Origin: a virus
Length of the DNA: 64,000 nt
Virus genome (UHGV): UHGV-2031204
Direction: 5' to 3' (one strand)
Shown: positions 10,699-45,544 of the stretch, one piece after another
Layout: each line of letters starts with the position of its first letter
Position numbering within the stretch: the first letter of the stretch is position 1
The notes under the pieces: model-generated
Databases searched by the model: none
What the model saw: the letters and a program-made list of their open reading frames with translations, nothing else
Told to the model about the DNA's origin: nothing
Translations under genes and position numbers: made by a program

Positions 10699-11961
10699 GT
10701 GACTACTGCTTATCAAGTGCGGCCCGACAGCGCTTTTGGCTTCTCTCGAGAGTCCCGTACCTGGGGAGCCATCGATGTCACGCAACCCTTAAATACGTTG
10801 TGTTCAGACTACCACACCTTTGAGATCGGTTTAAGTGCACTTGGTAAAGACTATACGTTAGTCAGCCAATACCATCTTGCCGAACTACAAAACCGAACAG
10901 ACACTTTACAAGATTGGTTAAATGAAAAAGCCGGAAACGTCATCCCCACTCTAAAAGCCGGATTGCCGAAACTGGAATTCAGTTGGGCGCATTACCAATC
11001 AATTAATGCCGATGTACCTGTCGAAACGTACCTGTGTCCGCCGGGGTACCACCACAGTCAAGATTTCAGCTTAGACGATGCTGATGACGTTGTCGTCGTT
11101 TGTGAGGACAAGTGGAAGGACAAATACCGTAATAGTGTACTGTACAACATTAACGGTCAATGGGTACCGCATCAGACAGATACCGTAGGTGTCCGATTAC
11201 CCGGGGCCGGTAAAATCGTACGGAGAGCCTGTACGCCTGATATCGGCTGTATGGTTTTTGGTCAGTTAGGGAATGTTAAAACTTACCCCATTGCCAACCT
11301 TACCCTAAACAAGCTCGACACTACACGTGACTATTACTCCACGTTAATGATTTCGCTGCCCGAATCTATTACGGGAAAAACGGTGGGTTTCGTCATCGGT
11401 GGACTGTTACGTTGGTTGCCTCCGGGCGGTTATTTCTCCGACCGTGCGATCATGATTTCTTTGCCGAATTTTGATCTTGCTCGGACCGTTCTAGAAACCC
11501 GTCGCTATTACGACTGGGATGCCATCGGTGTGGGGGATTTATCAACGCCTACTAATGTCCAACGCATTCGCAACCCCGAAACATTAAAGGCGCTTTTACT
11601 CCACGAGTCTTCGTTTATCTTTACGGTAGATAACCCGTATTTAGAAGAAGAGGTTGTGGGTGTATCGCATAACGCAGTTTGGGGACGTTGTTATCTCAAG
11701 GACCCTAGCGATCCTGATTCTGAAAAACCATTAGGGTACTTAAATAATCGCTTCGGGAAGACGGTGGGCTATTGGCCTACATGGGAGGAGGGTGAGTGGG
11801 TATTTAACACCACCGAATTCGACAGTCAAAACTACGTCTTTCGTGAAGCCCGGTGGTATAATCAGAAGAAGATTAACGACGCGCAAGCAATCGTCGGTCC
11901 ATTCGGTCCCTGGGAAAAAGTGTATTTAGAAATGCATCGCTTTAGAGCACGAAAAAAATAA
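10699..11961 (+). CDS. hypothetical protein (420 aa)
   Basis: Track ORF, GTG start with AGAGGA RBS; divergent from fiber gene; followed by hairpin terminator. Confidence 0.55.
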   Translation: MTTAYQVRPDSAFGFSRESRTWGAIDVTQPLNTLCSDYHTFEIGLSALGKDYTLVSQYHLAELQNRTDTLQDWLNEKAGNVIPTLKAGLPKLEFSWAHYQSINADVPVETYLCPPGYHHSQDFSLDDADDVVVVCEDKWKDKYRNSVLYNINGQWVPHQTDTVGVRLPGAGKIVRRACTPDIGCMVFGQLGNVKTYPIANLTLNKLDTTRDYYSTLMISLPESITGKTVGFVIGGLLRWLPPGGYFSDRAIMISLPNFDLARTVLETRRYYDWDAIGVGDLSTPTNVQRIRNPETLKALLLHESSFIFTVDNPYLEEEVVGVSHNAVWGRCYLKDPSDPDSEKPLGYLNNRFGKTVGYWPTWEEGEWVFNTTEFDSQNYVFREARWYNQKKINDAQAIVGPFGPWEKVYLEMHRFRARKK

Positions 11962-11967
11962 AGTAAC

Positions 11968-12009
11968 CTCCTACCCTCTAAGAGGGTAGGAGTAGCACGT
12001 TTTTTTTTC
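11968..12009. terminator. bidirectional intrinsic terminator
   Basis: 10-bp stem CTCCTACCCT/AGGGTAGGAG (11968-11992) with T-runs on both sides, between convergent stops at 11961 and 12012. Confidence 0.6.
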
Positions 12010-12011
12010 GC

Positions 12012-12221
12012 TTAGTCTTTTTTGTAGACAATTGCGTTACCGTGCAGTTTGTTGTTGCCGGAAATACCGATAACTTTGAATGCGTCGCCGCCAATTTTTT
12101 CAGCTTCAGCAGCCAGCTTACCCGTTACATGATCAACGGTGTCGCCGAAAGCGCTAACGTTACCGATTTTCTTAAACTCTTCTGGAATATGCTCAGCAGA
12201 AGAGAACTCTTTAATAGACAT
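12012..12221 (-). CDS. small hypothetical protein (69 aa, Gly/Ala/Lys-rich)
   Basis: Track ORF 12012..12239; internal ATG at 12221 has GGAGAG RBS; terminator downstream, GC hairpin upstream. Confidence 0.5.
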   Translation of the reverse strand: MSIKEFSSAEHIPEEFKKIGNVSAFGDTVDHVTGKLAAEAEKIGGDAFKVIGISGNNKLHGNAIVYKKD

Positions 12222-12427
12222 AACAGCTCTCCATTTCAAAAGGAAGGTGGTCTAAGACCGACGTGTGTTACAACCGAAGCATAAGATAGCTCCTCCCCGT
12301 AGGGAGGAGTAGAGTGCGCGAAAAAAGTGGCCTGCTTAACTAAACGATGGGTTTAAGAAAAGTGTTGATAAAAAGCTTTACCAACGTCAGGTCACAATAT
12401 ATAAACACAACGTAAGAAAAAGGGGAA

Positions 12428-13393
12428 TTATTGCGGAGGTGATGTCGGACCATGTTTACCTTGGTGAATGTGAACGCTAAAGGTAATACCGGAAATAATG
12501 GCATCTTTAACCGTAAAGACACCCACGCCTTCACCCGTACCACCGTATTTGAAGTTCTTAGCGACTTCCAGATTACCGGTGAACATCGCTTCCTTCCCTT
12601 CTTGTTTAAAGTTCGGCGTTTTGAACGTTGTCGAACTGCCCGCTTCTGTTAACCAGGTTTGTGTTTTAAACGTAACGGAATTCGCTGCTTCCGTATTGCG
12701 GACTTCACATTTTTCATTAATCGTTTTCGTTTCCAGGTTAATAGAACGCTTTGAATAAATGAACGCATCTTCTTTGTTGATGTTCACTTTTGAAAGCATC
12801 GCATTCTCAAACCCGAGATCATCTTCAACCGAGTTAATGTAATACTTGTTTCCTTTATGGTCAACGCACTGCCACGTACCGTTTGCATTATCAAACTGAA
12901 ACAACCACGCCGCTTTCTCGCCATTCACCATACTCGTTCTTAGCGTGATATGTTTGTCAATCGTCGAAACGTTCAACACATACGCATTGGACAAGTCATC
13001 CGCCATTTGGTTTTCAGGGTCAGCCGACCACGCATAAACCGCATCTTCTAATCGCTTAACGTTAGCGAAGTTCAGATCAATCCAAAAATAAATATCGGTT
13101 TTCCCCAAACGTAACAAGATAACGTAGTCTTCTCGTTTAACGTCAGGGGAATTAATTCGGTTGGAGTTAAACTTCCACCACTTTGCTGTTATCGTGTTAC
13201 CCGTCTTAATGGTTAGGTTATCTGTTGCACCAGACGTTTCATGCGTCTTTTCAGTTGCTGAAGAAACAGATTGTACCACGGTAGGGTTAGCAAAGTTAGT
13301 TTCAATTGGTATCACTTTTACCCGATCTGTACCACGGGGTTTGTCTTCCGCGACGATACCAATTGAGAAAAAATCAACACTGGATTTCTCCAT
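12428..13393 (-). CDS. hypothetical protein (321 aa), possibly virion-associated
   Basis: Track ORF; beta-rich Thr/Asn/Lys composition; no motif recognised. Confidence 0.5.
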   Translation of the reverse strand: MEKSSVDFFSIGIVAEDKPRGTDRVKVIPIETNFANPTVVQSVSSATEKTHETSGATDNLTIKTGNTITAKWWKFNSNRINSPDVKREDYVILLRLGKTDIYFWIDLNFANVKRLEDAVYAWSADPENQMADDLSNAYVLNVSTIDKHITLRTSMVNGEKAAWLFQFDNANGTWQCVDHKGNKYYINSVEDDLGFENAMLSKVNINKEDAFIYSKRSINLETKTINEKCEVRNTEAANSVTFKTQTWLTEAGSSTTFKTPNFKQEGKEAMFTGNLEVAKNFKYGGTGEGVGVFTVKDAIISGITFSVHIHQGKHGPTSPPQ

Positions 13394-13421
13394 CGGGACG
13401 TTCCTTAGATCGGAATTGATT

Positions 13422-13447
13422 TCAGATATATTTTACTTAAGTGAATA
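13422..13447 (+). promoter_or_regulatory. candidate phage promoter motif (copy 1 of CAGATATAT[T/A]TTACTTAAGTGA)
   Basis: Near-identical to motif at 17706-17731; followed by a 9-bp-stem hairpin (13448-13473); sits in a 320-bp ORF-free region upstream of the first plus-block gene. Confidence 0.4.
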
Positions 13448-13580
13448 GGGACTGAAGTACCAGTTCAGTCCCTACGGACACGTTACCCTTTTAGTACCTT
13501 TCGTTAAAGGTTACTAAAAAATTACATTATGTCCCTTTATTCTGCTACTCGGGATACCGGTAGGGGATAGGGGGCATTAT

Positions 13581-13619
13581 GTATACGGATATAAATAGCG
13601 GAGGTATACGGAGTATACC
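13581..13619. promoter_or_regulatory. candidate operator: GTATACGGA direct repeat plus GGTATAC-GGA-GTATACC palindrome
   Basis: Direct repeats at 13581-13589 and 13605-13613; perfect 7-bp inverted repeat at 13603-13619; ~100 bp upstream of 13715. Confidence 0.3.
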
Positions 13620-13714
13620 GACATACTCTTCCCAGAGGAACGTAGTGACTTCCTTATACCTCTTTTACAATCCATAATAATAGCCTTCCCTTCATTGGGA
13701 TTAGCGAGTAAATC

Positions 13715-14449
13715 ATGAAAGAATTATTAGACGATATCTTTACCAATACCAGTTTAGAACTTTCTTCTACGGTGGTTAACGAACTAATAAAACAATCGCA
13801 ACCTGCTAAGTTAGGCGCTGCCAGGGTAGTTAACCCTAAAGATTATCTAGGCTGCGATATCATAGGTGGTACGATCGATGAGTACGCAATTGGTATTTAC
13901 CCCAACTGGGTCTTCTTTGTTCTTAATACCGAAACCGGTGTCATGTTAACCTACACGATGAGTAGTGATGCCGAACACGAAGTTGTAGCGGAACATATTC
14001 GCCACATCGCCAGCACGCCTATCTTTTCCGACGTTACGTTTATTGGGGGAAGCACTATGCTGACGTTATTCTCTTACTTCCCACTGTTTAGACATGGGGT
14101 AGGGTTAATCAAGCATGTAGAAAACCTTCCCGATAACGTAGAGTTATCACTGCTTGGCCCCGGCATCGATCTTTATCCATTAAAAGATAACGGTAAGTTA
14201 TACGGTTTACGTATCTATGTTTCTTGGTTAAAGGGATACCGCGTTATTGAACTGATTGCATCAGACTTAACAAAACAGATCCCAGAAGTAGAAACGATTT
14301 CTAAAGCCACCCACCTGGTTGAGATTAACCCAGACGATCCGTTTTTACAGTACCACAAAGAAATTGCCCTTCGTGGTATCGCGGCCGTAAAAGGGTGGGG
14401 CTGTGCTGAGATTACGAAGGGCTATCTGCTTCTAATTAAAACCGCGTAA
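13715..14449 (+). CDS. hypothetical protein, tandem paralog family member 1 (244 aa)
   Basis: Track ORF; N-terminus MKELLDDIF matches MKVHLDDIF of 16282 ORF; C-terminus KGWG..EI.KGYLLLI resembles GW..V..G.QLLF tail of neighbours. Confidence 0.6.
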   Translation: MKELLDDIFTNTSLELSSTVVNELIKQSQPAKLGAARVVNPKDYLGCDIIGGTIDEYAIGIYPNWVFFVLNTETGVMLTYTMSSDAEHEVVAEHIRHIASTPIFSDVTFIGGSTMLTLFSYFPLFRHGVGLIKHVENLPDNVELSLLGPGIDLYPLKDNGKLYGLRIYVSWLKGYRVIELIASDLTKQIPEVETISKATHLVEINPDDPFLQYHKEIALRGIAAVKGWGCAEITKGYLLLIKTA

Positions 14450-14478
14450 TTAAGAAAACCGAAAAAGGAGAATATACC

Positions 14479-15033
14479 ATGTTTCAAACTGAACTGAAAA
14501 ATGAAATTATCCAAACCCTTGAAAAGGGCGTAGGCGAACATTTCTTTGTCCGTCCTTATACCGTACTGACCAATACCATTATTCAGCCAGGTGCGATGAT
14601 AGTAGGGGTGAGTGTACAAGCTGTGGAGGAAACCCCACTGCGTCGCAACATCACACGTAAAACCCATATCCCGTTTAGAACAGGTTTTACAGATTACTTT
14701 CAGAGCTTACTGAAAGATAGCGTTTGGAAAACAGGTAGCTTCTTCCACGAAGGGAAGACTTCCACGCTGGTTTATAAAGAGAACACCAAGTATCTGGTCG
14801 ATTTTCTCTTAGCGCGTCAGTATGCTTTCTTTCCAACCCCTACTGACTGCACCACAGACAACCCAGGTAAGTTATTAAACCAAAGCGAAGCCGAGGCACT
14901 CTTTACAAGACTTCGGAATGAGCAGTGCGATGTTGACGACTGGGAAACATTGATCGCGGTCGCTAAAGCCCACGGTTGGTATACCGTACGTAAACTCGGT
15001 CAGCAGTTGTTGTTCTTAGCTTACCCTGCTTAA
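14479..15033 (+). CDS. hypothetical protein, tandem paralog family member 2 (184 aa)
   Basis: Track ORF with AAGGAG RBS; C-terminal block YAFFPTPTD...EAEALFTRL...HGWYTVRKLGQQLLFLA shared with 15063 and 16282 ORFs. Confidence 0.65.
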   Translation: MFQTELKNEIIQTLEKGVGEHFFVRPYTVLTNTIIQPGAMIVGVSVQAVEETPLRRNITRKTHIPFRTGFTDYFQSLLKDSVWKTGSFFHEGKTSTLVYKENTKYLVDFLLARQYAFFPTPTDCTTDNPGKLLNQSEAEALFTRLRNEQCDVDDWETLIAVAKAHGWYTVRKLGQQLLFLAYPA

Positions 15034-15062
15034 GTAACGAAAAAACCTAAAGGAGAGTAAAA

Positions 15063-16214
15063 ATGCGAAATATTATTTCTAAACCAGGACATGTCAAAAT
15101 CCTAAAAGAACTGATGGACAGATGCTATAATCGGACTTGGTCACTACCAAGCTTAACCATCGAGTCTTCATTACAACGTGAGTTGTTTGGTTATAACTTG
15201 GGCTGTTGTGTACTTACTGAATACAATGAGATTATCGCGCCTGTCGATGTCTGTACTTACGATGAAGAAATTGAAGGTTACAAGTTCGCGGTTTACACAA
15301 ATTGTGGACTAAATTACCGTAAACTCGTTGTTAGGGAAAAGAGTAGCAGCCGGAAGATTATGTTTAAGGTCTTCCCAAGTGGTAAAGTCAGTAATTTATG
15401 TTTTCAGCTTGAGAAAGTGCCCTTTCACGGTGCGGACATTTTAACTAAACCGGAGCTCGCGTTATTAAGCGGGTTAATTGGCTTTGAAGCAAAAACCATC
15501 AAAGTTGAGCAGGAACTTACACGAAACGATTTCGGGTCAACTTGGTACGAAAGTTTCTTCCGCTACGAAATGTTAAGTGATAAAGCTATCAAACTCACTT
15601 ACCGTTCTACCGACGACATCGTTTACCACATTTTAATTAGCGGCGAACCCCACCAGATTATTGAAGTCGAAGGAGAAAAATCCGTGCGTACCTTAAAAGA
15701 TGAATTAACTGATTTTGTTAACAAAATTGATAACGTGGGTATCAGTGAATTATTATTCCCGATTCAACATCCAGAGTTGCTTGACGAGAAATGTGAAAAC
15801 ATGATTATGGCGGTGCATTTACTTCCTGACCATCTTGCTATCTACCGTACACTTTCTAAGAACCAACTTAAAGTGTGGTGTCTGTTAAAAGGTCTTTTAA
15901 CAGAGGCGGGGTGGTCGTGTAGTGTAGATGTTAACTGTGAAGGAGTTGCGTTCTTCATCACAATAGGCAATCGTAGTTTTTCTGTCGATTTACCTACTCG
16001 CAGCTATTACGATTTCTTCCCGACCGCAGAAGGACGTACTGAAAAAGAACCCGCATTACTGCTCAGTGCTGAGGAGTCCAATGCGTTAATGGCGAAACTG
16101 AAGGCGAAAGACGAGAAGCTGGATGCTTTACATCTACCTATAATCGGGAAAGACTACGGTTGGGCTGACGTGCAAAAATACGGCAGTCAGCTGTTGTTTG
16201 TTGCTGACCTCTAA
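15063..16214 (+). CDS. hypothetical protein, tandem paralog family member 3 (383 aa)
   Basis: Track ORF with AAAGGAGAG RBS; C-terminal YDFFPTAEG...SNALMAKL...YGWADVQKYGSQLLFVA. Confidence 0.65.
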   Translation: MRNIISKPGHVKILKELMDRCYNRTWSLPSLTIESSLQRELFGYNLGCCVLTEYNEIIAPVDVCTYDEEIEGYKFAVYTNCGLNYRKLVVREKSSSRKIMFKVFPSGKVSNLCFQLEKVPFHGADILTKPELALLSGLIGFEAKTIKVEQELTRNDFGSTWYESFFRYEMLSDKAIKLTYRSTDDIVYHILISGEPHQIIEVEGEKSVRTLKDELTDFVNKIDNVGISELLFPIQHPELLDEKCENMIMAVHLLPDHLAIYRTLSKNQLKVWCLLKGLLTEAGWSCSVDVNCEGVAFFITIGNRSFSVDLPTRSYYDFFPTAEGRTEKEPALLLSAEESNALMAKLKAKDEKLDALHLPIIGKDYGWADVQKYGSQLLFVADL

Positions 16215-16240
16215 TAAGTGAAAATACACTTTCTCTAACT

Positions 16241-16267
16241 GCCGCGCTTTAGTCGCGGCTTTTGTTA
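16241..16267 (+). terminator. intrinsic terminator
   Basis: Stem GCCGCG/CGCGGC then TTTTGTT. Confidence 0.5.
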
Positions 16268-16281
16268 AGAAGGAAATAGAA

Positions 16282-17055
16282 ATGAAAGTCCATTTAGACG
16301 ACATCTTTAAAACCGAACCGTATATGATCGAAGGCCCGCTATCATCACTACTATTTGCCGATAGATTAGATCGTACGCTGCAATTACAATCGGTCGAAAC
16401 TGCACCCGTTGACGATGTAGAGCGTTACGAGCGCATCAACTATACGCGTGGTGAGTATCGTCGCTATAAGCCAAATTCACTAAGCATCAAGCTTTGGAAT
16501 GTGAGCACAGGTAAAGTATTAACTTATCGCGCTGTTGGTAGTTATTACATTCAACAAGCCAAAGAGTGGTTAGAAAAAGTTAAAGAACTGAACTTCGATC
16601 TACTGAGCAAAAAACTGCGCGATCATAACGCCAGTTTGCCGATACGTAATTATTTCTCCACGATTGAAAATAGTCGTTGTTTCGTTTCACGTGAAACCAC
16701 GATATTACCTGGGGATGATGTTCAGACAACACTAAAAGATGTGGTTGTGAAGAAAATCTTTCATGAATCTGAACACGTTGGATTTCGTATCTATTTAACG
16801 CATAAGAGACCATTTACCGTGATTCACGTTGTTACCGCACCCGAAGGCTCAGCGATTATTCGTGAACTTCCTGATGCTCGAGACCGTTGCCCTAATGAGC
16901 CGCTTTATTTAATGTCAGGAACAAAATCAACCGCGTTGATGTCCCGTTACAGCATGTTAGATGTTGTTGACGCTGCTATGAAACTAGGTTGGAAAGAAGT
17001 GCAGCAACATGGTAAACAATTGCTGTTTATTGCCGATGTAAAACTTAATCAATAG
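16282..17055 (+). CDS. hypothetical protein, tandem paralog family member 4 (257 aa)
   Basis: Track ORF; C-terminal STALMSRY...KLGWKEVQQHGKQLLFIA; N-terminal MKVHLDDIF. Confidence 0.65.
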   Translation: MKVHLDDIFKTEPYMIEGPLSSLLFADRLDRTLQLQSVETAPVDDVERYERINYTRGEYRRYKPNSLSIKLWNVSTGKVLTYRAVGSYYIQQAKEWLEKVKELNFDLLSKKLRDHNASLPIRNYFSTIENSRCFVSRETTILPGDDVQTTLKDVVVKKIFHESEHVGFRIYLTHKRPFTVIHVVTAPEGSAIIRELPDARDRCPNEPLYLMSGTKSTALMSRYSMLDVVDAAMKLGWKEVQQHGKQLLFIADVKLNQ

Positions 17056-17067
17056 TGAGGTGGTACC

Positions 17068-17646
17068 GTGTACCGATTAATAGAAATGCGAAAAGACGTT
17101 TGGTTGGAAAACCTCGTCGATGGGGAGCTTGAGGGAATAGAGCTTTCCTTACCAGAAAGAGCGGACACGGTATTGGTCTTTCTGATAAAACAGGCAGCGA
17201 AGGAACCGGTAGGAATCTTCAGCGTGGACTATAAAGACCCACGAGGGATTCATTTACGGAACATTTGCAGTGGTTTAGAAAGCTTACCGGCTAATCCGTT
17301 CTTAAACTACGCAAAACGTAAACTCCAGCCAGGGCAACATCTCTGGGTAGTTCTAGCGCCTGATACACGCATTATACGTGACGACCAGACTGCGTTTGTC
17401 CAAGCAACGAAAGTCAGTTTGTACAATCCTAATGCGGATCGTACCGATATGCCGTTTACAATCACCTTAGAAGACGATGGAACGCAAGAGGGTATTGAGG
17501 CAATTACGGAATTAGTAAACTCTTATCCGGTAGCATCTATTGAGTTAGAAAACCCAAACCGATTACCGTTGGGTGATTTACTCGAATGGATTGAGCTGAA
17601 TACCGAGTTCCTCATTAACTCCCGGCAGTACCGGTTCGATGTATAA
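17068..17646 (+). CDS. hypothetical protein (192 aa)
   Basis: Track ORF, GTG start with GAGGTGG RBS; followed by strong terminator. Confidence 0.55.
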   Translation: MYRLIEMRKDVWLENLVDGELEGIELSLPERADTVLVFLIKQAAKEPVGIFSVDYKDPRGIHLRNICSGLESLPANPFLNYAKRKLQPGQHLWVVLAPDTRIIRDDQTAFVQATKVSLYNPNADRTDMPFTITLEDDGTQEGIEAITELVNSYPVASIELENPNRLPLGDLLEWIELNTEFLINSRQYRFDV

Positions 17647-17650
17647 CATC

Positions 17651-17683
17651 GGTGGGGGTAAACCCCCACCTTTTATTTTTTTG
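17651..17683 (+). terminator. intrinsic terminator
   Basis: Stem GGTGGGGG/CCCCCACC followed by TTTTATTTTTTTG. Confidence 0.7.
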
Positions 17684-17705
17684 TTCGTTAATATTAAAAA
17701 TAATT

Positions 17706-17731
17706 TCAGATATATATTACTTAAGTGAGAG
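17706..17731 (+). promoter_or_regulatory. candidate phage promoter motif (copy 2; contains TATATTAC)
   Basis: CAGATATATATTACTTAAGTGAGAG matches 13422-13447; directly after a terminator and ~45 bp upstream of 17777; overlaps hairpin TTAAGTGAG...CTCACTTAA. Confidence 0.45.
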
Positions 17732-17776
17732 TACAAAAGCACTCACTTAACGAAAACCATTTTAGGAGAACTAAAG

Positions 17777-18148
17777 ATGAAAAACGAATTATTCAAAGAC
17801 CCGTTTGTTGTATTAATGATCGTTACTCGCGCTGCCACTAACCCAGAAAACCTGAAACGTTTACTTACTAACGAAGCATACCTTATCGAACAGCGTGACG
17901 CGCAGTTAGCCAAACCACACGCTGAAGGCCAGGCGAAAGACCTTATCTCTATTTTCCGTAACGAAGAATGGCGTAAAAACAACGAGCTGTCCGACAACCT
18001 GACGGTTGCAATTGCAAAACTCTTGACACTGTTCAATCTTGACAAAGACATTAACCAAAGCCTTTCTACAGAAGAGCGTCTGGAAATGATAAGAGGTATC
18101 GGAGATAGTTATACACAGATTAAAGCATTACCCAACACAGTTATTTAA
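17777..18148 (+). CDS. hypothetical protein (123 aa)
   Basis: Track ORF with AGGAGAA RBS. Confidence 0.55.
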   Translation: MKNELFKDPFVVLMIVTRAATNPENLKRLLTNEAYLIEQRDAQLAKPHAEGQAKDLISIFRNEEWRKNNELSDNLTVAIAKLLTLFNLDKDINQSLSTEERLEMIRGIGDSYTQIKALPNTVI

Positions 18149-18194
18149 TTTCATAATTTGTGGGAACTTCCCCATAACCCGAAGGAGCATTTCA

Positions 18195-18656
18195 ATGAAA
18201 ACCTTTATCACTTTCTTAATAACTATTTTAACTTTCGGCCTCAATACTGCACACGCCGCTATCAACAGCTGGGAACAAATACAAAACCCTGGCCAGGCAG
18301 TTTACGAAATTGAAGACACCGCCGGAAACGGACTGTCTATCAACTGTGACACTGAAACTGCGAATCGCAAATTTTACGGTCGCATGGTTTGGTATTACGG
18401 GGAACCCGTAGGTGCAACTAACGCTGAAGATAACACGATGGATATTGTCGTAAACGGCAAGACCTATAACATCCCTACCGTGGACGGTAGTGACAAAGCA
18501 GAACACGCTTGGGTTGCTTTCGTTAATGCTATCGGTAATGCCAAAACTTTCAGTGTGAGTATCAATGGTAACGATGCCGCTAACTTTACCGTAGAAGGCG
18601 AACGTCTGTCTGAAACTTTCTTCCAGAACTGTGGACACACCCGTCCTAACAAATAA
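18195..18656 (+). CDS. small secreted protein 1 (153 aa, predicted signal peptide)
   Basis: AAGGAG RBS; N-terminus MKTFITFLITILTFGLNTAHA is a classic Sec signal with AxA site; mature part has 2 Cys. Confidence 0.6.
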   Translation: MKTFITFLITILTFGLNTAHAAINSWEQIQNPGQAVYEIEDTAGNGLSINCDTETANRKFYGRMVWYYGEPVGATNAEDNTMDIVVNGKTYNIPTVDGSDKAEHAWVAFVNAIGNAKTFSVSINGNDAANFTVEGERLSETFFQNCGHTRPNK

Positions 18657-18684
18657 GTATTAATCTTTTTTAGAGTGCGTGAAA

Positions 18685-19071
18685 ATGAATATCAGAACTA
18701 TACTTTATACTATCATTATTTTCTGTGCGGTCGGAATTACTGGCACTTATGCTTTCGGTGATTCAGATGTCCGTTATTACGAACCGGCTCCTGACTCACC
18801 GATTATCAACCCGGATGAGACGCCTACGTTAATGCGCAGTTTCGGTAAACTGCAAGTTTATCGTTTAGTGCGTGGTGAAACCTGTACGGGTTTACTCATT
18901 GCTGACACCCGTGCACAAGTCTACCAACGTCTAACCGATATCGCCTGCGAACAACCAAAAGTAATGTCAGTTAGTATCCATCCGCTATCAGTTGGTAACT
19001 ATACCGCTGTGGACTTCTTTCACAACGCCGAATTAATCGGACGCGTTACCTTAAATCGTCCTGCCGAATAA
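18685..19071 (+). CDS. small secreted protein 2 (~128 aa, predicted signal peptide)
   Basis: Track ORF from GTG 18679; ATG at 18685; hydrophobic N-terminus IRTILYTIIIFCAVGITGTYA; Cys in mature part. Confidence 0.5.
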   Translation: MNIRTILYTIIIFCAVGITGTYAFGDSDVRYYEPAPDSPIINPDETPTLMRSFGKLQVYRLVRGETCTGLLIADTRAQVYQRLTDIACEQPKVMSVSIHPLSVGNYTAVDFFHNAELIGRVTLNRPAE

Positions 19072-19089
19072 TCTAAAGGAGTAGTTACA

Positions 19090-19575
19090 ATGAAACGTTT
19101 ACATACACTGATGTTCTTTCTGGTTTTCTTGTTTATCGGTGCCACGCCAACTGTAGATGCGGCCTCCGTAGACGAATTGCTTACCTGCGATGGAAACGCT
19201 TGGGAAGGTCAGCCAAATGCGTGCCCAAACATCAACGACTTGTACGATACCGATAAGTCGTTTAAAGCCGTTGTTGATAAAACACTAGACCCCGTAGGGC
19301 TGGATGGTATGTTCGGCTCTAAAGGTTACATGGATGGCCCTGGCGGTAACATGTATCCGGTAAACATCAACAACAAAATCTGGATTGAAAGCGGCGGTTG
19401 TAAAGCTAACGCTTGTGGTTGGGAATACATCGTAACGCTATACAACCCACACACTAAGAAACTCGTCGGCTATTACTACAACATCGACCCCGGTTACCTG
19501 ATTTGGTTCGGTGATATCGGTGTTGCCGAATTCGCTTACCTGGTTAAGAAATACGTAGAACAATCTAAATACTAA
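19090..19575 (+). CDS. small secreted protein 3 (161 aa, Cys-rich, predicted signal peptide)
   Basis: AAGGAG RBS; MKRLHTLMFFLVFLFIGATPTVDA signal; several Cys in mature part. Confidence 0.6.
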   Translation: MKRLHTLMFFLVFLFIGATPTVDAASVDELLTCDGNAWEGQPNACPNINDLYDTDKSFKAVVDKTLDPVGLDGMFGSKGYMDGPGGNMYPVNINNKIWIESGGCKANACGWEYIVTLYNPHTKKLVGYYYNIDPGYLIWFGDIGVAEFAYLVKKYVEQSKY

Positions 19576-19586
19576 GGACTTTTATC

Positions 19587-19997
19587 ATGAAAACTATCAT
19601 TAATACTCTTCTCATTGCAATGGCTGTTCTGTTCTCTGTCAACGCTACAGCAAAAACAATACAGTTGCCAGACAATATTAAGTACGTCAATAGCACCGAT
19701 GATTTCTATTGTACGGAAATTGACGGCTTGTACTGTCAGGCAAAGAGCCTGTTTAAATACAAAGGTAGCAGATACGTATTCATCGTTGAGCAAGGTGGTG
19801 CCTGGTGCTACGACAGCCCAATGTCCGTACTCAACCTCGAAACGTGGAAGGCTCAGCGTCTCGAATACAACGACAAACGTCTGTGCTCTGGTAATAACAA
19901 ACCATTCTTCGAAGTCGTAGATGGTGTGCCAATGGTAGGGATATTAGACACTTCGGAAAAACCTATCGTTGTAGCTATGGATAAACTTAAAATTTAA
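19587..19997 (+). CDS. small secreted protein 4 (136 aa, predicted signal peptide)
   Basis: MKTIINTLLIAMAVLFSVNATA signal; Cys pairs in mature part. Confidence 0.55.
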   Translation: MKTIINTLLIAMAVLFSVNATAKTIQLPDNIKYVNSTDDFYCTEIDGLYCQAKSLFKYKGSRYVFIVEQGGAWCYDSPMSVLNLETWKAQRLEYNDKRLCSGNNKPFFEVVDGVPMVGILDTSEKPIVVAMDKLKI

Positions 19998-20007
19998 GGA
20001 GTAACTC

Positions 20008-20397
20008 ATGCGTCTCGTCTGCGTTTTAGCATTCTTCTTCTCCCTGAGTGTAGCAGCATCTACCCAAGTTAACGATTTACTGCTAACCCCAAACAACAAT
20101 ACCGATTATCAGTACAATCCTCCGGGGTTTGAAGTTTGCGAAGTCGGTGAAACAATCTGCCAAGAAGTCGGCGCAGACGGGCGCTATATTCTGGTAAAAG
20201 CTGACGGTGGCACAATGTGTCCCGCAGGTTATTACTTTCTGCTCGATTCCGTCGCAAGAGAGGTTCTTCCTATCACCACGAAAACGTGCGACCCTACCGT
20301 TGTCTTAACTCTCGCTAAAAGTAAATCTCGCGACCGTTATCTGATCGTTATCGAAGAACGGGGCAAGATGGCGGGTGCTATTGAATTAGATCATTGA
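20008..20397 (+). CDS. small secreted protein 5 (129 aa, predicted signal peptide)
   Basis: AAGGAG RBS; MRLVCVLAFFFSLSVAAS signal; 5 Cys in mature part. Confidence 0.55.
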   Translation: MRLVCVLAFFFSLSVAASTQVNDLLLTPNNNTDYQYNPPGFEVCEVGETICQEVGADGRYILVKADGGTMCPAGYYFLLDSVAREVLPITTKTCDPTVVLTLAKSKSRDRYLIVIEERGKMAGAIELDH

Positions 20398-20407
20398 GTG
20401 TAGTCTT

Positions 20408-20436
20408 GACCCCGGTACGTCCGGGGTCCTTTTTAC
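20408..20436 (+). terminator. intrinsic terminator
   Basis: Stem GACCCCGG/CCGGGGTC followed by CTTTTTAC. Confidence 0.6.
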
Positions 20437-28253: not shown

Positions 28254-29189
28254 ATGACTTTTCCATCTGAAGTAATTCACGAACTGGCTAACACGCTACG
28301 TCGTTACCATAGCAGCAAGACGATGCAAACCAATGTGGGCGCGACCGCCGACTTTTTACGTGGTTATTTCCTAGGCAGAAATCCAACGTCGATTACACAG
28401 GAAACGGTTTTCTCTATCGAACGTACCTCCTTAATCCTTCCAATTGATAATTTCACTGCGTTTCAAGAAAGGAATACGTTCAACTTCTCTATGGGAATGC
28501 TGTATTCGACCATCGCCATTAATCCCATCATGAGAGATGACCCATCTTTCGTGCCTTACCAACATACAACGGATCACGGTAATTGGTTCGTTGTGGTAGA
28601 ACAAGGTGCGAATCAGTATGATGTTGTTGCGGCTCGTGACGAAGCTTTCTTTGATTTAGGACAGATTTATCGCCGTCAAGAAATTGCGTTTGACCTACGT
28701 CAAGGTAATATCGGATTAAGTGGGTCTGCTGTCTATTTCATCCTGAGCAGTTGGTCACATGTAGGTTTTGTGTTGATGAAAAAAGGACCGTTGTTCAACT
28801 CACCGTTGGTAAAATACCATAACCCTGAGGAAGGAGATCATGACGAAAAAGAAACGGTACCTGGCACAGAAGTCGCCGTTTGTGAAAACTACGATGATCT
28901 GAAATCTGTGCTCGTTAAACGTGATGTTTTCGAATCGTTAAACCTGGATTTCCCTGGTGACGAAAAAGAAATATCCGTAGCTGACCTGGTAGAAGCATTG
29001 TGTCAGAAAGACCAAGCTAATGAGATCAGTGACGAAGAAGCGGAACTCTTCCAAGTTCAACAACTCGTCAGCAAGGTTATCGGCGGCCAGGAAATCGTTG
29101 ACACCCTTATGGCTTTACCACCGAAGAAACGTACTCAAAAGTACATTCGTGAACTGGTTCTTAAAAACCTGGGTCAAGTCAAAAAGTAA
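28254..29189 (+). CDS. hypothetical protein (311 aa, acidic C-terminal region)
   Basis: Track ORF with AGAGGA RBS; terminator after stop. Confidence 0.55.
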   Translation: MTFPSEVIHELANTLRRYHSSKTMQTNVGATADFLRGYFLGRNPTSITQETVFSIERTSLILPIDNFTAFQERNTFNFSMGMLYSTIAINPIMRDDPSFVPYQHTTDHGNWFVVVEQGANQYDVVAARDEAFFDLGQIYRRQEIAFDLRQGNIGLSGSAVYFILSSWSHVGFVLMKKGPLFNSPLVKYHNPEEGDHDEKETVPGTEVAVCENYDDLKSVLVKRDVFESLNLDFPGDEKEISVADLVEALCQKDQANEISDEEAELFQVQQLVSKVIGGQEIVDTLMALPPKKRTQKYIRELVLKNLGQVKK

Positions 29190-29197
29190 TTTAAGTC

Positions 29198-29233
29198 CCC
29201 TACTCCTCCGGGAGTAGGGTTAATTCTTTCTCC
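29198..29233 (+). terminator. intrinsic terminator (CCCTACTCC family)
   Basis: Stem CCCTACTCC/GGAGTAGGG, loop TCCG, then T-rich run. Confidence 0.55.
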
Positions 29234-29799: not shown

Positions 29800-29810
29800 A
29801 ATAAAAGCTA

Positions 29811-29845
29811 CCCTACTCCTTCGGGAGTAGGGTAATCTTTTTTAG
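29811..29845. terminator. bidirectional intrinsic terminator (CCCTACTCC family)
   Basis: Same stem as 29198 with loop TTCG; T-rich both sides; between convergent stops 29799 and 29842. Confidence 0.6.
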
Positions 29846-35177: not shown

Positions 35178-35839
35178 TCGTTTATAGTGAGGTCTTGTCA
35201 AAAGCCCCTCGGTTTTTACAAACTCACTTTATGTATAACGCACGACACTATTGGGGCTTTAAAGCCCCTTACTCCGAAGATTGGGAAGTTGTGGAAAAGT
35301 TAGCATTTGTGTTTTCTCTTTCGTTGTTGTGGGAGATCATTGCACTATACAACGCAGGTTGTGATATCCCGGAGAACGGCTTTTTCCAACAACACCTATT
35401 CCAAAAATTCACAGCATCGGTAGAAAATCATGAAGTACGCAAGGAGTGTCTCGGCTACGCAGAGCATTCTGAAGAGTTGAAAAAGATTTCCAAATTAGTT
35501 ATCACGCGGGCATGGGCTGAATTCGAAACTTACCCCGAAAAAATAATTTGGTTTAATCGTGAACAGTTTATTAAAGAGGCAGCCAGTCAACATCCCGTTC
35601 GATTAATCGTGTTAAAGCCATCCGATCTTGCCTTACGCCACATCTATTCCTCTCCAGAGGAAATCGTTTTTTCCTCTGGAACAACAGATTACGGTATTTT
35701 TAAACAAGGCGATTCTTGGATTCTTCCACACGATTTAGACGGGTATTTGCTCAGCAGCGATCAAATACATTCGGGTTATGACTCACAGGTGAAGGAGTTT
35801 ACACTCGATCCTTTTTTCGCTAAAAATATTCTTAGATAG
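35171..35839 (+). CDS. hypothetical protein (222 aa)
   Basis: Track ORF; start overlaps upstream stop. Confidence 0.5.
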   Translation: MLIVYSEVLSKAPRFLQTHFMYNARHYWGFKAPYSEDWEVVEKLAFVFSLSLLWEIIALYNAGCDIPENGFFQQHLFQKFTASVENHEVRKECLGYAEHSEELKKISKLVITRAWAEFETYPEKIIWFNREQFIKEAASQHPVRLIVLKPSDLALRHIYSSPEEIVFSSGTTDYGIFKQGDSWILPHDLDGYLLSSDQIHSGYDSQVKEFTLDPFFAKNILR

Positions 35840-35847
35840 ATATTATC
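35838..35847 (+). promoter_or_regulatory. AGATATTATC promoter-like motif (copy 2)
   Basis: Overlaps TAG stop of 35171..35839; 38 bp upstream of 35876. Confidence 0.35.
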
Positions 35848-35875
35848 CAGGTGTAACACCATTGGAGTTATTAAA

Positions 35876-36619
35876 ATGCTAAAAGTTTATGTCCCTCAAT
35901 TACAACGTATCAATCCCTCGTTGTTCGAGGGAATCTTTTATAAAATTTGGCCACAATACTTCAATGAACATTTGAAGGACCAGAAGTGGTCAACCGTACA
36001 AGGAGAATTCTTTTATACCGCACAGACGGCCTGCACAATCGTCTTTACTCGTCTCATCTCCGAAGTTATCGAGGCTGTCAATACCAACCGAAACTTTGAC
36101 CTTCGCGGCGTAGTCGAAATAGATCTCTCAGGGATCTTCGATAACTACGATTGTGATGACGCCGTATTCGAGCATTTCTCTTCTGAAGATGTCTGGGAAG
36201 CCGTTTATCAATGGCTAGAATACTACATGAATTTTCTATTCTCTCCAGAGATGTTAGAAAGTTTCAATAAAGCACTCTACCCCATTTATAACGACTTACT
36301 CAACGTTAAACAAACAAAGAACCTCGTTGGTTTCTGGTTTTCGATTTACGACGCCGAATGTACGTTGTGGGAAAAAGAAATGATTGCTTACGGGATAGAA
36401 CGGGGAGACTATGTTGAGCTTCATTGTGGTTTCTGGCCATTCAGTGACTACGAGAACGCACGGCTTGGTATCTCACGATTGTGGTCGTTTTACCTCTGTG
36501 AAGCTACGGGCGTTATTTACCTTGAAGACAGCGGAGCACAAATCCCTAATGGTGCTGTTGTAACTTACTGCCAGATTCGAGAAGATCGGGGTCGGGCAAT
36601 TTATCAGGAATATGCATAA
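35876..36619 (+). CDS. hypothetical protein (247 aa)
   Basis: Track ORF with GGAGTTATTAAA-ATG initiation region. Confidence 0.55.
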   Translation: MLKVYVPQLQRINPSLFEGIFYKIWPQYFNEHLKDQKWSTVQGEFFYTAQTACTIVFTRLISEVIEAVNTNRNFDLRGVVEIDLSGIFDNYDCDDAVFEHFSSEDVWEAVYQWLEYYMNFLFSPEMLESFNKALYPIYNDLLNVKQTKNLVGFWFSIYDAECTLWEKEMIAYGIERGDYVELHCGFWPFSDYENARLGISRLWSFYLCEATGVIYLEDSGAQIPNGAVVTYCQIREDRGRAIYQEYA

Positions 36620-42844: not shown

Positions 42845-43144
42845 ATGCGTTATCAAACGGAGATTGTGGAACGCTTAAGTGAAGGATTGGCAAGTGTTAA
42901 TTTAGAAACAGCGGCCGAATTTCGTGAAGCCTTCACTCTTCCGTTTCCCGATCTGGAATCCTTTTGTTTAAAGGTCGCTGAGTATTACTCGAATCTATTA
43001 GTACGTTACGGGTATGCGCCAGTACGTTCCGAACTTCCTGAAAACACGGAAGCTATCAGCTACTGGATTGACCTGCTTGAAGCAGAAACGTTATCCAATT
43101 TACGTAAGGCGGTAGACAATGAAACTCGAACCAGCACGGCGTAA
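42845..43144 (+). CDS. hypothetical protein (99 aa)
   Basis: Track ORF with AAGGAG RBS. Confidence 0.5.
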   Translation: MRYQTEIVERLSEGLASVNLETAAEFREAFTLPFPDLESFCLKVAEYYSNLLVRYGYAPVRSELPENTEAISYWIDLLEAETLSNLRKAVDNETRTSTA

Positions 43145-43787
43145 AAAGGCGGAAGCCTACGCCTTACAAATCTTAAAGTTGGTAGACCCTTCTGGCATTA
43201 ATGCCGAAGCCGCGAAGAAAGCCTTCGCACGAATGACCGACGAACAGTTTAACCGACTTCGTGACGGTTTACCTATTTACAACCCGGTGGGAAGTAAAGT
43301 CGAAATTGACCACCTGCGCAATATCGAGGTGTGCAAAATCCTCGGGGTAAACCTGGAGCAACGACTGTGGCTAACAGAACCAAAAACGGGCGTTTATCAT
43401 CGTACCCGTTACCCTCACTTAGTCTTACGCTTGCCTGTCCGTCGTCAGACACAGATGCAAGAAAAGAAAATGGCGGTTGCGAAAAACGACAAAGTCCGCG
43501 ATAAACTCTCCGGCCAAGTCGTCGGCCCTTCCAAAGCATCCGGGGTATCCTTCCCAGAAGCATACATCATGTATTCCGATGGTCACGACTGGACGCTGAA
43601 AGAGTTCCTGTGGGCGCGTGGTGGTAACGACGCACTACAACGTGCTTTCTATCAGTCGTTACGCCAAACCGGTAAAGGTCGTATTGATTTGCCTGGAGCG
43701 GAGCGAACGAGTTCTAAAGCAACGCGTACGTGGTCAGCGTACCTAAAAGCGATGCATATCGGTAACAACATAGGCCATCCGTCATGA
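43119..43787 (+). CDS. hypothetical protein (222 aa)
   Basis: Track ORF; overlaps upstream gene by 26 nt. Confidence 0.5.
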   Translation: MKLEPARRKKAEAYALQILKLVDPSGINAEAAKKAFARMTDEQFNRLRDGLPIYNPVGSKVEIDHLRNIEVCKILGVNLEQRLWLTEPKTGVYHRTRYPHLVLRLPVRRQTQMQEKKMAVAKNDKVRDKLSGQVVGPSKASGVSFPEAYIMYSDGHDWTLKEFLWARGGNDALQRAFYQSLRQTGKGRIDLPGAERTSSKATRTWSAYLKAMHIGNNIGHPS

Positions 43788-44924: not shown

Positions 44925-44956
44925 TCTTACTACCTCAATTTCAAAAAGAAGTCAGA

Positions 44957-44966
44957 CAGATATTAT
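44957..44966 (+). promoter_or_regulatory. AGATATTATC promoter-like motif (copy 3)
   Basis: In divergent intergenic region, 39 bp upstream of 44996. Confidence 0.35.
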
Positions 44967-44995
44967 CTACGTGAGACATTCTTTAGGAGTGAATT

Positions 44996-45544
44996 ATGTT
45001 AACAGGAATAATAACTCGTTTTAAACAACGGTTAGAGAATAATCGTTTAAAAGCCCTCAGAGAGTCTCTGAAGCAGGAGTTCCATAAGAACACCCACAAC
45101 CCCTATGTCAGAGTCTTTACCGGCTTACAATTGCTTACGTTGCCTTTAAACATAAACGAAGAACCTTTTCGTCCCAGCCTTCGCGGTTTCCTCGAATTGC
45201 GTATTAATAACATTGATCTCGTTTATCAACGTTTGGCATTTCTCATTAATGAATACCAACGAGCAATTAACAGGAGTTCAATCGAATGGCTGCCATTACC
45301 TGACGCTTTAAATAAACGAAACGACTTGGCGGAATACCGATGGCTAGACACTTATTTTGGGACGTCCAGTCCTGAGGTTGCCGCTTATAAGCTGGGTAAA
45401 TTACTCGCGCTAATTCAACCCTATGAATCGGCGTTCCTTAAACCGGAGTCCGACGAAGACAAAGCGCTGGTAAATCAAACTGCGCATTTATTCCGGGAGT
45501 TGGAAACGTTGATTGAACACTACCTTTTAGAACGTCCTATTTAA
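44996..45544 (+). CDS. hypothetical protein (182 aa)
   Basis: Track ORF with AGGAGTG RBS. Confidence 0.55.
   Translation: MLTGIITRFKQRLENNRLKALRESLKQEFHKNTHNPYVRVFTGLQLLTLPLNINEEPFRPSLRGFLELRINNIDLVYQRLAFLINEYQRAINRSSIEWLPLPDALNKRNDLAEYRWLDTYFGTSSPEVAAYKLGKLLALIQPYESAFLKPESDEDKALVNQTAHLFRELETLIEHYLLERPI

Follow-up and report, generated by a model that had tools for sequence, protein, structure and literature searches.

A 22-nt motif, CAGATATAT[T/A]TTACTTAAGTGA, lies on the + strand at positions 13423-13444 (copy 1) and 17707-17728 (copy 2) of a 64,000-nt stretch of the virus genome UHGV-2031204, the whole of which we refer to as the window, and we hold with high confidence that it is the strong-class early promoter of an SPN3US/Erskinevirus-like, phiKZ-related jumbo phage. 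By analogy with such phages, the enzyme that reads it is probably an RNA polymerase (RNAP) carried in the virion.

Two strong and two weaker copies of the motif

A preliminary description of this DNA had pointed to two near-identical copies of the motif, and both proved to be real. With up to three mismatches allowed, the 22-mer matched the window at these two places only, and 100 shuffles yielded no match (0 expected by chance). Taken together with a common TTT prefix, the stretch shared by the two copies grows to 25 identical nucleotides (13420-13444 and 17704-17728). The copies had also been described as standing ahead of gene clusters, the second one directly after a strong terminator, and this is how we found them: copy 1 is located between two divergent sets of genes, a baseplate-assembly gene on the - strand (start 13393) and genes on the + strand, and copy 2 lies 37 nt past a strong terminator and 50 nt before an ATG (17777).

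Two weaker variants had been missed, however. Scanning the window with a weight matrix of 41 nt, built from 31 distinct instances of the motif, returned exactly four sites, with predicted transcription start sites (TSSs) at 13443, 17727, 35853 and 44973, all of them on the + strand (Table 1). Copy 1 scored 51.1 bits, compared with a shuffle maximum of 18.4, and copy 2 scored 56.2 bits. All four sites fell within the non-coding fraction, which makes up 4.6% of the window, and each was positioned 5′ of a co-oriented + strand open reading frame (ORF). Orthologs of copy 1 were present in 12 relatives, and the SPN3US site syntenic with the weaker site at 44953-44974 has its TSS at 191621. Both weaker sites belong to a AGATAGATATTATC..GTG class and are without a clear 5′ hairpin.

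Table 1. Coordinates of the features discussed in the text, numbered from the first nucleotide of the window
Feature	Position	Strand	Sequence or remarks
Predicted early promoter, copy 1	13420..13444	+	TTTCAGATATATTTTACTTAAGTGA; 22-mer = CAGATATATTTTACTTAAGTGA; predicted TSS G13443; exact match
Copy-1 5′-proximal hairpin	13446-13456/13464-13474	+	perfect 11-bp stem, 7-nt loop, begins at +4
Second, imperfect hairpin of the copy-1 leader	13489..13519	+	at the site where relatives have a small ORF absent from the window
Single-copy non-coding conserved element	13531..13660	+	GGGG(A/G)-TA-GGGGG ... CGGAGG-hairpin-CCGACATACT ...
Genes of the copy-1 unit	13715-14449, 14479-15033, 15063-16214, 16282-17055, 17068-17646	+	function unassigned
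Strong intrinsic terminator closing the copy-1 unit	17651..17680	+	GGTGGGGGTAAACCCCCACC plus T-run; stem 17651-17670
Predicted early promoter, copy 2, with A/T-rich upstream part	17681..17728	+	…TTAATATTAAAAATAATTTCAGATATATATTACTTAAGTGA; 22-mer = CAGATATATATTACTTAAGTGA; predicted TSS G17727; exact match
Sequence elements of copy 2			ATATATTAC, CAGAT, +1 G
Copy-2 inverted repeat	17721-17729/17742-17750	+	9 bp, TTAAGTGAG/CTCACTTAA; overlaps promoter 3′ end
Genes of the copy-2 unit	17777..20397	+	unit closed by terminator 20408-20428
Weaker variant promoter (predicted)	35833..35854	+	TAGATAGATATTATCCAGGTGT; 26.6 bits; intergenic; predicted TSS 35853, 23 nt 5′ of ORF 35876-36619
Virion RNAP betaC homolog	43119..43787	+	222 aa; 83% identity to SPN3US protein at 189763-190431
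Weaker variant promoter (predicted)	44953..44974	+	CAGACAGATATTATCTACGTGA; 26.5 bits; intergenic; predicted TSS 44973, 23 nt 5′ of ORF 44996-45544

Fit to the early promoters of phiKZ-related phages

The motif in the window matches the early consensus of phiKZ relatives almost base for base. Predicted early promoters have been published as TBYAWWWWWTTTCARRYAKATATTATYWAAGTGWA for N1M2, BSHAWWWWWTTTYARRYAKATATTATYWWADTG for OBP and TTAWTAVAA_HYWTTTRARR_BTATATTACDWHDGTG for 201phi2-1, and the phiKZ early promoter as TATATTAC (PMC7058600); the descriptions of the phiKZ and OBP promoters come from secondary sources (PMC7058600, PMC7598289). According to a review, an AT-rich block of ~10 nt, centred near -10, is found upstream of the presumed early operons of every RNAP-encoding jumbo phage, and this same block is the early promoter wherever transcripts have been profiled (PMC7598289). 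The AT-rich core in the window reads ATATATATTAC in copy 2 and ATATATTTTAC in copy 1, which differ by one substitution, and both copies carry TTTCAG at -23 to -18. In early promoters of phiKZ-type phages (Chimalliviridae), T-rich and A/T-rich elements are conserved around -20 and -30.

The spacing between core and start agrees as well. For phage AR9, mapping gave AAATATATATTAT-(6N)-G as the early consensus (PMC5312081), and we read its G as the TSS because the motif was derived from sequences aligned from -50 to +1. All seven phiKZ promoters that were inspected show TATATTAC-(N6)-G spacing, and both copies in the window read TTAC-TTAAGT-G, which is the core-(6N)-G arrangement at the level of sequence; the full reading of copy 2 from core to start is ATATATATTAC-TTAAGT-G-A. 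From the AR9 rule and this match, we therefore predicted that transcription starts at G13443 and G17727.

Host RNAP offers an extremely improbable alternative, in which the motif would be a sigma70-type promoter (an AT-rich -10 with a UP-like element) used in the manner of T4-type early promoters. The motif does contain -10-like hexamers (TATATT), and copy 2 has an A/T-rich stretch upstream, but no sigma70-type site (-35 and -10 hexamers spaced by 16-18 nt) was called at either copy, in line with the misfit already remarked on in the preliminary description, and sites of this type were not enriched in the 12-30 kb region (24 found versus 29.8 expected). Moreover, conservation extends to position +2 and covers CAGAT and TTAAGTGA, neither of which plays a part in sigma70 promoters, the 22-mer had no match in 185,579 bacterial and archaeal species (one genome each), and relatives of this phage develop independently of the host RNAP (PMC13282480).

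Identity of the phage and of the proposed polymerase

Proteins encoded in the window, which stems from an SPN3US/Erskinevirus-like jumbo phage, are ~50-80% identical to those of Salmonella phage SPN3US, the large virion proteins being ~50% identical to those of SPN3US and of the Erwinia Erskineviruses, and the window is syntenic with SPN3US from RefSeq gp097 to gp027. Among its genes is a homolog of betaC of the virion RNAP (vRNAP), for which the PHROG family "RNA polymerase beta subunit" gave a match at E 6e-93. Its SPN3US counterpart was assigned by position and length as original gp218, vRNAP betaC; the SPN3US RefSeq tags run in reverse, such that the original number equals 266 minus the tag number, a conversion that we checked with gp218 (222 aa), gp241 (1401 aa) and gp42 (431 aa). 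SPN3US gp218 is a vRNAP subunit that has been seen in virions by mass spectrometry (PMC5105663). The remaining vRNAP subunits lie outside the window, betaC being the one encoded within it, and we propose that this protein is part of the polymerase that would read the motif.

Distribution of the motif in related phages

Exact copies of the 22-mer were present in 25 stretches of IMG/VR viral contigs (35-246 kb, most of them >200 kb), usually with several copies per genome. When the 12-19 kb region was compared with deposited phages at the DNA level, the copy-2 promoter region alone found matches, in the Erwinia phages phiEaH2 and Stratton, where the matching DNA is intergenic and has the same layout of terminator, A/T-rich stretch, TTTCAGATATATATTACTTAgGTGAGAG and gene.

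We also applied the weight matrix to the complete annotated genome of SPN3US (264 coding sequences; 6.4% non-coding), and obtained 19 matches at or above 14.4 bits (shuffled genomes: maximum 18.4, mean 2.8). All 19 were on the + strand, all 19 were intergenic, and they preceded the next + strand start by 26-233 nt, such that at the scale of a whole genome the motif is placed upstream of co-oriented genes. The sites form two classes, a strong one with CAGATATATATTACYTAGGTGA and a variant one with (C)AGATAGATATTATCT..GTG. About half of the SPN3US sites are of the variant class, including those before the genes of the non-virion RNAP (nvRNAP).

Several of the SPN3US sites stand before genes mapped to nvRNAP subunits: the TSS at 28988 precedes one such gene (29014), and the TSSs at 15633 and 15726 precede a cluster with an nvRNAP-mapped gene at 17704. 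None of the 19 matches stood immediately 5′ of the vRNAP genes, the products of which are virion proteins. In the scheme described for phiKZ, transcription of the genes for the second polymerase falls to the injected enzyme (PMC13282480), and the presence of the motif before nvRNAP genes, but not before vRNAP genes, fits this scheme.

We infer that the genes downstream of the motif are early ones, and it is on this matter of timing that middle or late promoters, served by the phage's non-virion RNAP, have to be considered. Some gene classes of 201phi2-1 had unexpected promoter types, and copy 1 adjoins a late (baseplate) operon, both of which would suit such a promoter. Yet the published middle and late motifs are different (TACT or an A-rich element near -22; TATG at the start site), the window motif has its near base-for-base fit to the early consensus, and the genes behind it are small accessory genes that in SPN3US include those of the nvRNAP, which are needed before any nvRNAP exists. 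We therefore regard a middle or late promoter as improbable. The proposal of the preliminary description, namely a phiKZ-like early promoter served by a virion-packaged RNAP, is thus supported by the fit to the consensus, the core-(6N)-G spacing, the betaC homolog, the intergenic and co-oriented placement of the copies, and the absence of the motif from bacteria.

A hairpin at the predicted 5′ end of the RNA

A stem-loop had been noticed following or overlapping each copy, and it is there in both cases, as an 11-bp stem behind copy 1 and as a 9-bp inverted repeat at copy 2 (Table 1). In RNA starting from G17727, the copy-2 repeat leaves a 5-bp stem with one mismatch (17727-17744). More generally, the GTGA of the motif is directly followed by a short hairpin, the sequence of which varies between loci. 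Comparison of 10 distinct orthologs of the copy-1 hairpin showed that 98% of cells were paired, that three pairs had undergone compensatory double changes and that the loop varied freely, and the pairing was lost when the register was slid.

To count such hairpins, we defined an anchored stem as one of 6 bp or more without interruption, beginning at +1 to +4 and enclosing a loop of at most 10 nt. Anchored stems were present in 35 of 77 distinct promoter instances, compared with 6.8% of shuffles, 8.5% of random windows and 17% of arm-swapped controls, which combine the 5′ arm of one promoter with the downstream part of a different one. When only instances with the complete NAGAT context were considered, 28/47 had such a stem, and most of the others had the same stem with one mismatch or bulge. 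The clustering did not depend on anchoring the search, as the best hairpin found anywhere in -15..+50 had its 5′ edge at +1 in 16/40 cases and at +1 to +4 in 25/40. In addition, the two arms covary among paralogous promoters (GAGAGTTAA/TTAACTCTT, GAGATTGC/GTAATCTT, GAGCATTGA/TCAATGCTT, GAGCGTTA/TAACGCTT and GATAGA/TCTATC). The enrichment, the clustering of 5′ edges at +1 and the compensatory changes together show that a stem at the predicted 5′ end is kept by selection.

Secondary structure at the 5′ end is known to stabilize mRNA, and the accepted reason is that RppH and RNase E require a 5′ end that is single-stranded (PMC3997798). Because of this requirement, the most likely role of the stem is to hide the 5′-triphosphate end from RppH and RNase E and so to stabilize the early mRNAs. 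It is possible, though in our view less likely, that the hairpin acts co-transcriptionally instead (in promoter escape, or as an early pause or attenuator), or that it tags early RNA for handling in, or export from, the early-infection vesicle. The stem occupies +1 to ~+20, and it is at this length that nascent RNA emerges from the polymerase, and many stems are followed by a T-run; for the vesicle, early transcription in this phage family takes place in a membrane vesicle, and the route by which mRNA exits has been listed as an open question (PMC13282480). However, stems this short and AU-rich would make poor terminators, the T-run is largely the complement of the 5′ GAGA, and phiKZ, which has the same infection strategy, is without the hairpin.

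Several points weigh against our reading of the motif and its hairpin. The TSSs, the early timing and the dependence on the polymerase are all assigned by analogy. The phiKZ-like core named in the preliminary description holds for copy 2, which contains TATATTAC, but not for copy 1, where the corresponding bases are TATTTTAC; copy 1 is also without the A-rich segment that copy 2 has at -25 to -35, because the start of the baseplate gene occupies that spot. As for the hairpin, the window's copy-2 stem is a weak one at the RNA level (-3.0 kcal/mol, z -0.1), and across SPN3US the mean folding energy of +1..+36 was the same as that of upstream-of-gene, intergenic and random windows (-5.5 versus -5.4 to -6.2 kcal/mol), and therefore the claim for the hairpin rests on geometry and covariation, not on stability. 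Since the promoter instances are phylogenetically related, binomial p-values are overstated. The stems are almost wholly Watson-Crick (3 G.U versus 3 A.C), so action at the RNA level and at the DNA level cannot be separated. Finally, only 1 of 7 phiKZ promoters (first 50 kb) had an anchored stem, and thus the hairpin is no general requirement of vRNAP promoters.

A cassette junction at copy 2

In four relatives (L003, L008, L016, L017), the ortholog of copy 2 directly drives the gene for a signal-peptide protein, homologous to 18195-18656 of the window. The window itself has an additional leader and gene, 17777-18148 (together 17733-18182), inserted between the promoter and 18195-18656. Homology with the four relatives breaks exactly after ...GTGAGAGT, so that the left junction coincides with the promoter's 3′ end; the right junction, in the one event examined, was not at a copy of the motif. 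In SPN3US, the best match of the inserted gene (223349-223747) itself comes first after a strong promoter copy (TSS 223296). A homolog of 17777-18148 in another contig (L025) is likewise the first gene behind a strong promoter copy. The promoter thus marks at least one gene-cassette exchange junction between related phages.

An insertion that begins exactly at the 3′ end of the motif, carrying a gene whose nearest homolog in SPN3US likewise comes straight after a copy of the motif, raises the question of whether the motif is a promoter at all, or is instead a recombination or mobility signal at a cassette edge, or the operator of a DNA-binding protein, with the hairpin being a DNA cruciform or part of the site. 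Purely Watson-Crick stems are compatible with pairing at the DNA level, and the inverted repeat of copy 2 spans the predicted start site. Nonetheless, we judge this to be very improbable: strict orientation and fixed distances to the Shine-Dalgarno sequence (+37 to +43) and start codon (+48 to +57) are what a promoter predicts, the motif is identical with experimentally validated promoters of relatives, and it is hard to see what a hairpin 5′ edge that clusters at +1 would mean for a site acting as DNA. Promoters are, moreover, known places of cassette exchange as a by-product of short shared homology, as in the promoter-early stem-loops (PeSLs) of T4-type phages, which are composite terminator/promoter cassettes that mediate gene shuffling (PMC4122927), and such exchange is compatible with promoter function.

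Taking the early-promoter reading further, we tentatively suggest, with less than even confidence, that the SPN3US/Erskinevirus-like clade carries a module composed of a vRNAP promoter and an obligatory 5′-terminal RNA hairpin, the sequence of which drifts as pairing and anchoring at +1 are kept, and that this module is functional in early expression and travels with gene cassettes. Protection, handling or export of the RNAs made by the injected polymerase would be candidate roles for its hairpin. We found no description of such a composite promoter-hairpin module in the literature searched. The same tentative proposal holds, separately, that the element at 13531-13660, described below, may be a new structured RNA or a single-strand DNA signal.

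A conserved element in the leader of copy 1

The leader behind copy 1 is 272 nt long, folds far better than its shuffles (z -5.1) and contains the conserved element at 13531-13660, in which only three internal sites vary in 13 relatives, with flanks that are 76-85% identical. This near-invariance holds despite the presence or absence of a small ORF upstream and strong divergence of the downstream gene in two relatives. In most relatives, the small ORF (~40-45 codons; e.g., L007, L010) lies between the copy-1 hairpin and the conserved element, and the window (13484-13511) and two or three close relatives (L121, L126, probably L128) are without it and carry the imperfect hairpin (13489-13519) in its stead.

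Exact-word searches for the element found close relatives only. By using nhmmer, and by fetching loci via the neighbouring baseplate protein, we identified diverged homologs at the same position in SPN3US (NC_027402.1 161480-161558), phiEaH2 and four other contigs, and the element can be recognized in several genera. In L132, L133, L134, L136, L137 and L139, the homologs lie ~70-160 nt 5′ of the start of the baseplate gene, which is on the opposite strand, and in L027 the homolog is at 12187-12267. There was one copy per genome in the whole sequences checked, namely SPN3US and the window itself. Fixed motifs in the element (GGGGG-TA-GGGGG, CGGAGG and CCGAC(N)TCCTTT, CCGACNTCCTTT) flank covarying stems (GGTATAC/GTATACC, GGTATCC/GGATACC, GGTGAC/GTCACC, GGAG/CTCC and GTCT/AGAC), and the central hairpin was retained by RNAalifold, two of its pairs showing compensatory changes in 4 of 9 sequences. 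The + strand of 13531-13660 folded with a z of -2.3, versus -0.5 for the - strand. Rfam had no match in 13400-13720 even at E up to 5, and ARAGORN called no tRNA or tmRNA in the leaders.

An early promoter precedes the element in the clade of the window only; in L137, the element has a terminator-like hairpin of its own behind it, after which comes a separate early promoter. Our leading guess is that the element is a structured RNA, with a DNA-level signal as the alternative. In clades without an early promoter at this place (L132-L137, SPN3US 161420-161450), a conserved (G/C)TCATATTAC(T)CTTTTTTACG, given in the + sense of the window, adjoins the Shine-Dalgarno sequence of the baseplate gene. 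Read on the - strand, this site is ...GTAATATGA..., a sequence that includes TATG, the core reported for late promoters of phiKZ.

Predicted transcription units and neighbouring genes

A typical strong-class unit consists of the TSS, a hairpin reaching to ~+20, a Shine-Dalgarno sequence at +37 to +43 and a start codon at +48 to +57, and copy 2 fits this layout with its start codon at +51. A candidate (A/T)CGAC(C/T)(A/T) box between the hairpin and the Shine-Dalgarno sequence was dropped, as it occurred in only 9 of 46 leaders. The first two genes of the copy-1 unit (13715-14449 and 14479-15033) are without an SPN3US homolog. No Pfam match was obtained for ten flanking proteins, and PHROGs returned only "unknown function" for the genes behind the promoters.

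Terminator-like sites were enriched in the 12-30 kb region, with 33 found versus 17.7 expected. A recurring terminator, CCCTACTCC-(tetraloop)-GGAGTAGGG with T-runs, is found at 29198-29219 and 29809-29834 of the window and at 2975-2999 of L001; it is common to the window, phiEaH2 and SPN3US-like contigs, stands upstream of many promoter copies, and recalls a conserved terminator motif reported for phiKZ. Further upstream, a 466-nt gap (11962-12427) between the convergent genes 10699-11961 (+) and 12428-13393 (-) holds short ORFs only, together with a - strand terminator-like hairpin (12290-12309); at the equivalent locus in SPN3US there is a small DUF1471 gene.

Proposed mechanism and significance

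By analogy with phiKZ, 201phi2-1 and AR9, from which we infer the steps of binding, initiation and termination, the injected multisubunit vRNAP would bind the AT-rich core ATATAT(A/T)TTAC, centred near -10, along with the upstream TTTCAG and the A/T-rich segment. It would start at the G six bases past the core (G13443, G17727), independently of the host RNAP, and would transcribe the small accessory genes up to the next intrinsic terminator. The resulting RNA would begin with a short stem-loop at +1 to +4 that would shield its 5′ end, and the copy-1 transcript would pass through the conserved, putatively structured element ahead of its first gene.

Read in this way, the labelled sites provide a map of the predicted early transcription units in an uncharacterized jumbo phage. 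Early units contain the genes that the injected polymerase expresses first from injected DNA, which are the ones most likely to hold host-takeover and anti-defence functions, and the clade-wide consensus offers compact, host-independent promoter parts. A hairpin that is conserved in position and variable in sequence gives a lead on the stabilization or handling of early mRNA in nucleus-forming phages, and the element beside the baseplate gene is a candidate for a new non-coding element.

Comparison with known systems

The window motif shares with the promoters of phiKZ, 201phi2-1, OBP and N1M2 an AT-rich core, TTTCA(R)(R), a downstream AAGTG and, in copy 2, an A/T-rich upstream part. Like promoters of the phiKZ type in general, it is multi-copy and intergenic, and heads operons of small genes in a phage whose virion RNAP has split beta/beta′ subunits. 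In contrast to these, the clade of the window has a fixed CAGATATATWTTACYTARGTGA version that coexists with a weaker class (AGATAGATATTATCT..GTG), and, unlike in phiKZ, a +1 hairpin accompanies the strong class.

With the AR9 consensus AAATATATATTAT-(6N)-G, the window motif has in common the core and the six-base spacing to the G. The AR9 early promoters were mapped by differential RNA sequencing (dRNA-seq) and primer extension, and are chloramphenicol-independent (PMC5312081). AR9 differs from the phage of the window in having uracil-containing DNA, another host and another clade, and its consensus is without the conserved flanks of the window motif, CAGAT upstream and TTAAGTGA downstream.

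Copy 2 partly resembles the T4-type PeSLs in that a terminator stem-loop is followed by an early promoter and in that a gene insertion or replacement junction lies at the promoter; PeSL promoters, however, are read by the host sigma70 RNAP, and here it is the left junction only, in one event, that coincides with the promoter. Similar to the 5′ stabilizer stem-loops of bacterial and phage mRNAs such as ompA and papA, the stem lies within 0-3 nt of the predicted 5′ end, a geometry that would block RppH and RNase E. The stems differ from those stabilizers in being short, AU-rich and unusually tied to one promoter class, and their stabilizing effect is proposed by analogy.

The vRNAP of coliphage N4 is a single-subunit enzyme, and the DNA hairpin upstream of the start is its recognition element. 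The likeness to N4 lies in early promoters that go with a hairpin and in a polymerase that would be brought in by the virion. Unlike in N4, the hairpin in the window lies downstream of the predicted start, recognition would be of a linear AT-rich motif, and the polymerase would be multisubunit.

In kind, then, the promoter is already known: for every RNAP-encoding jumbo phage, promoters of this sort have been either described or predicted, and near-identical consensus sequences for N1M2 and OBP are in print. What goes beyond this picture is the clade-specific +1 hairpin with its covariation, the two-class repertoire, the insertion anchored at a promoter, and the element beside the baseplate gene.

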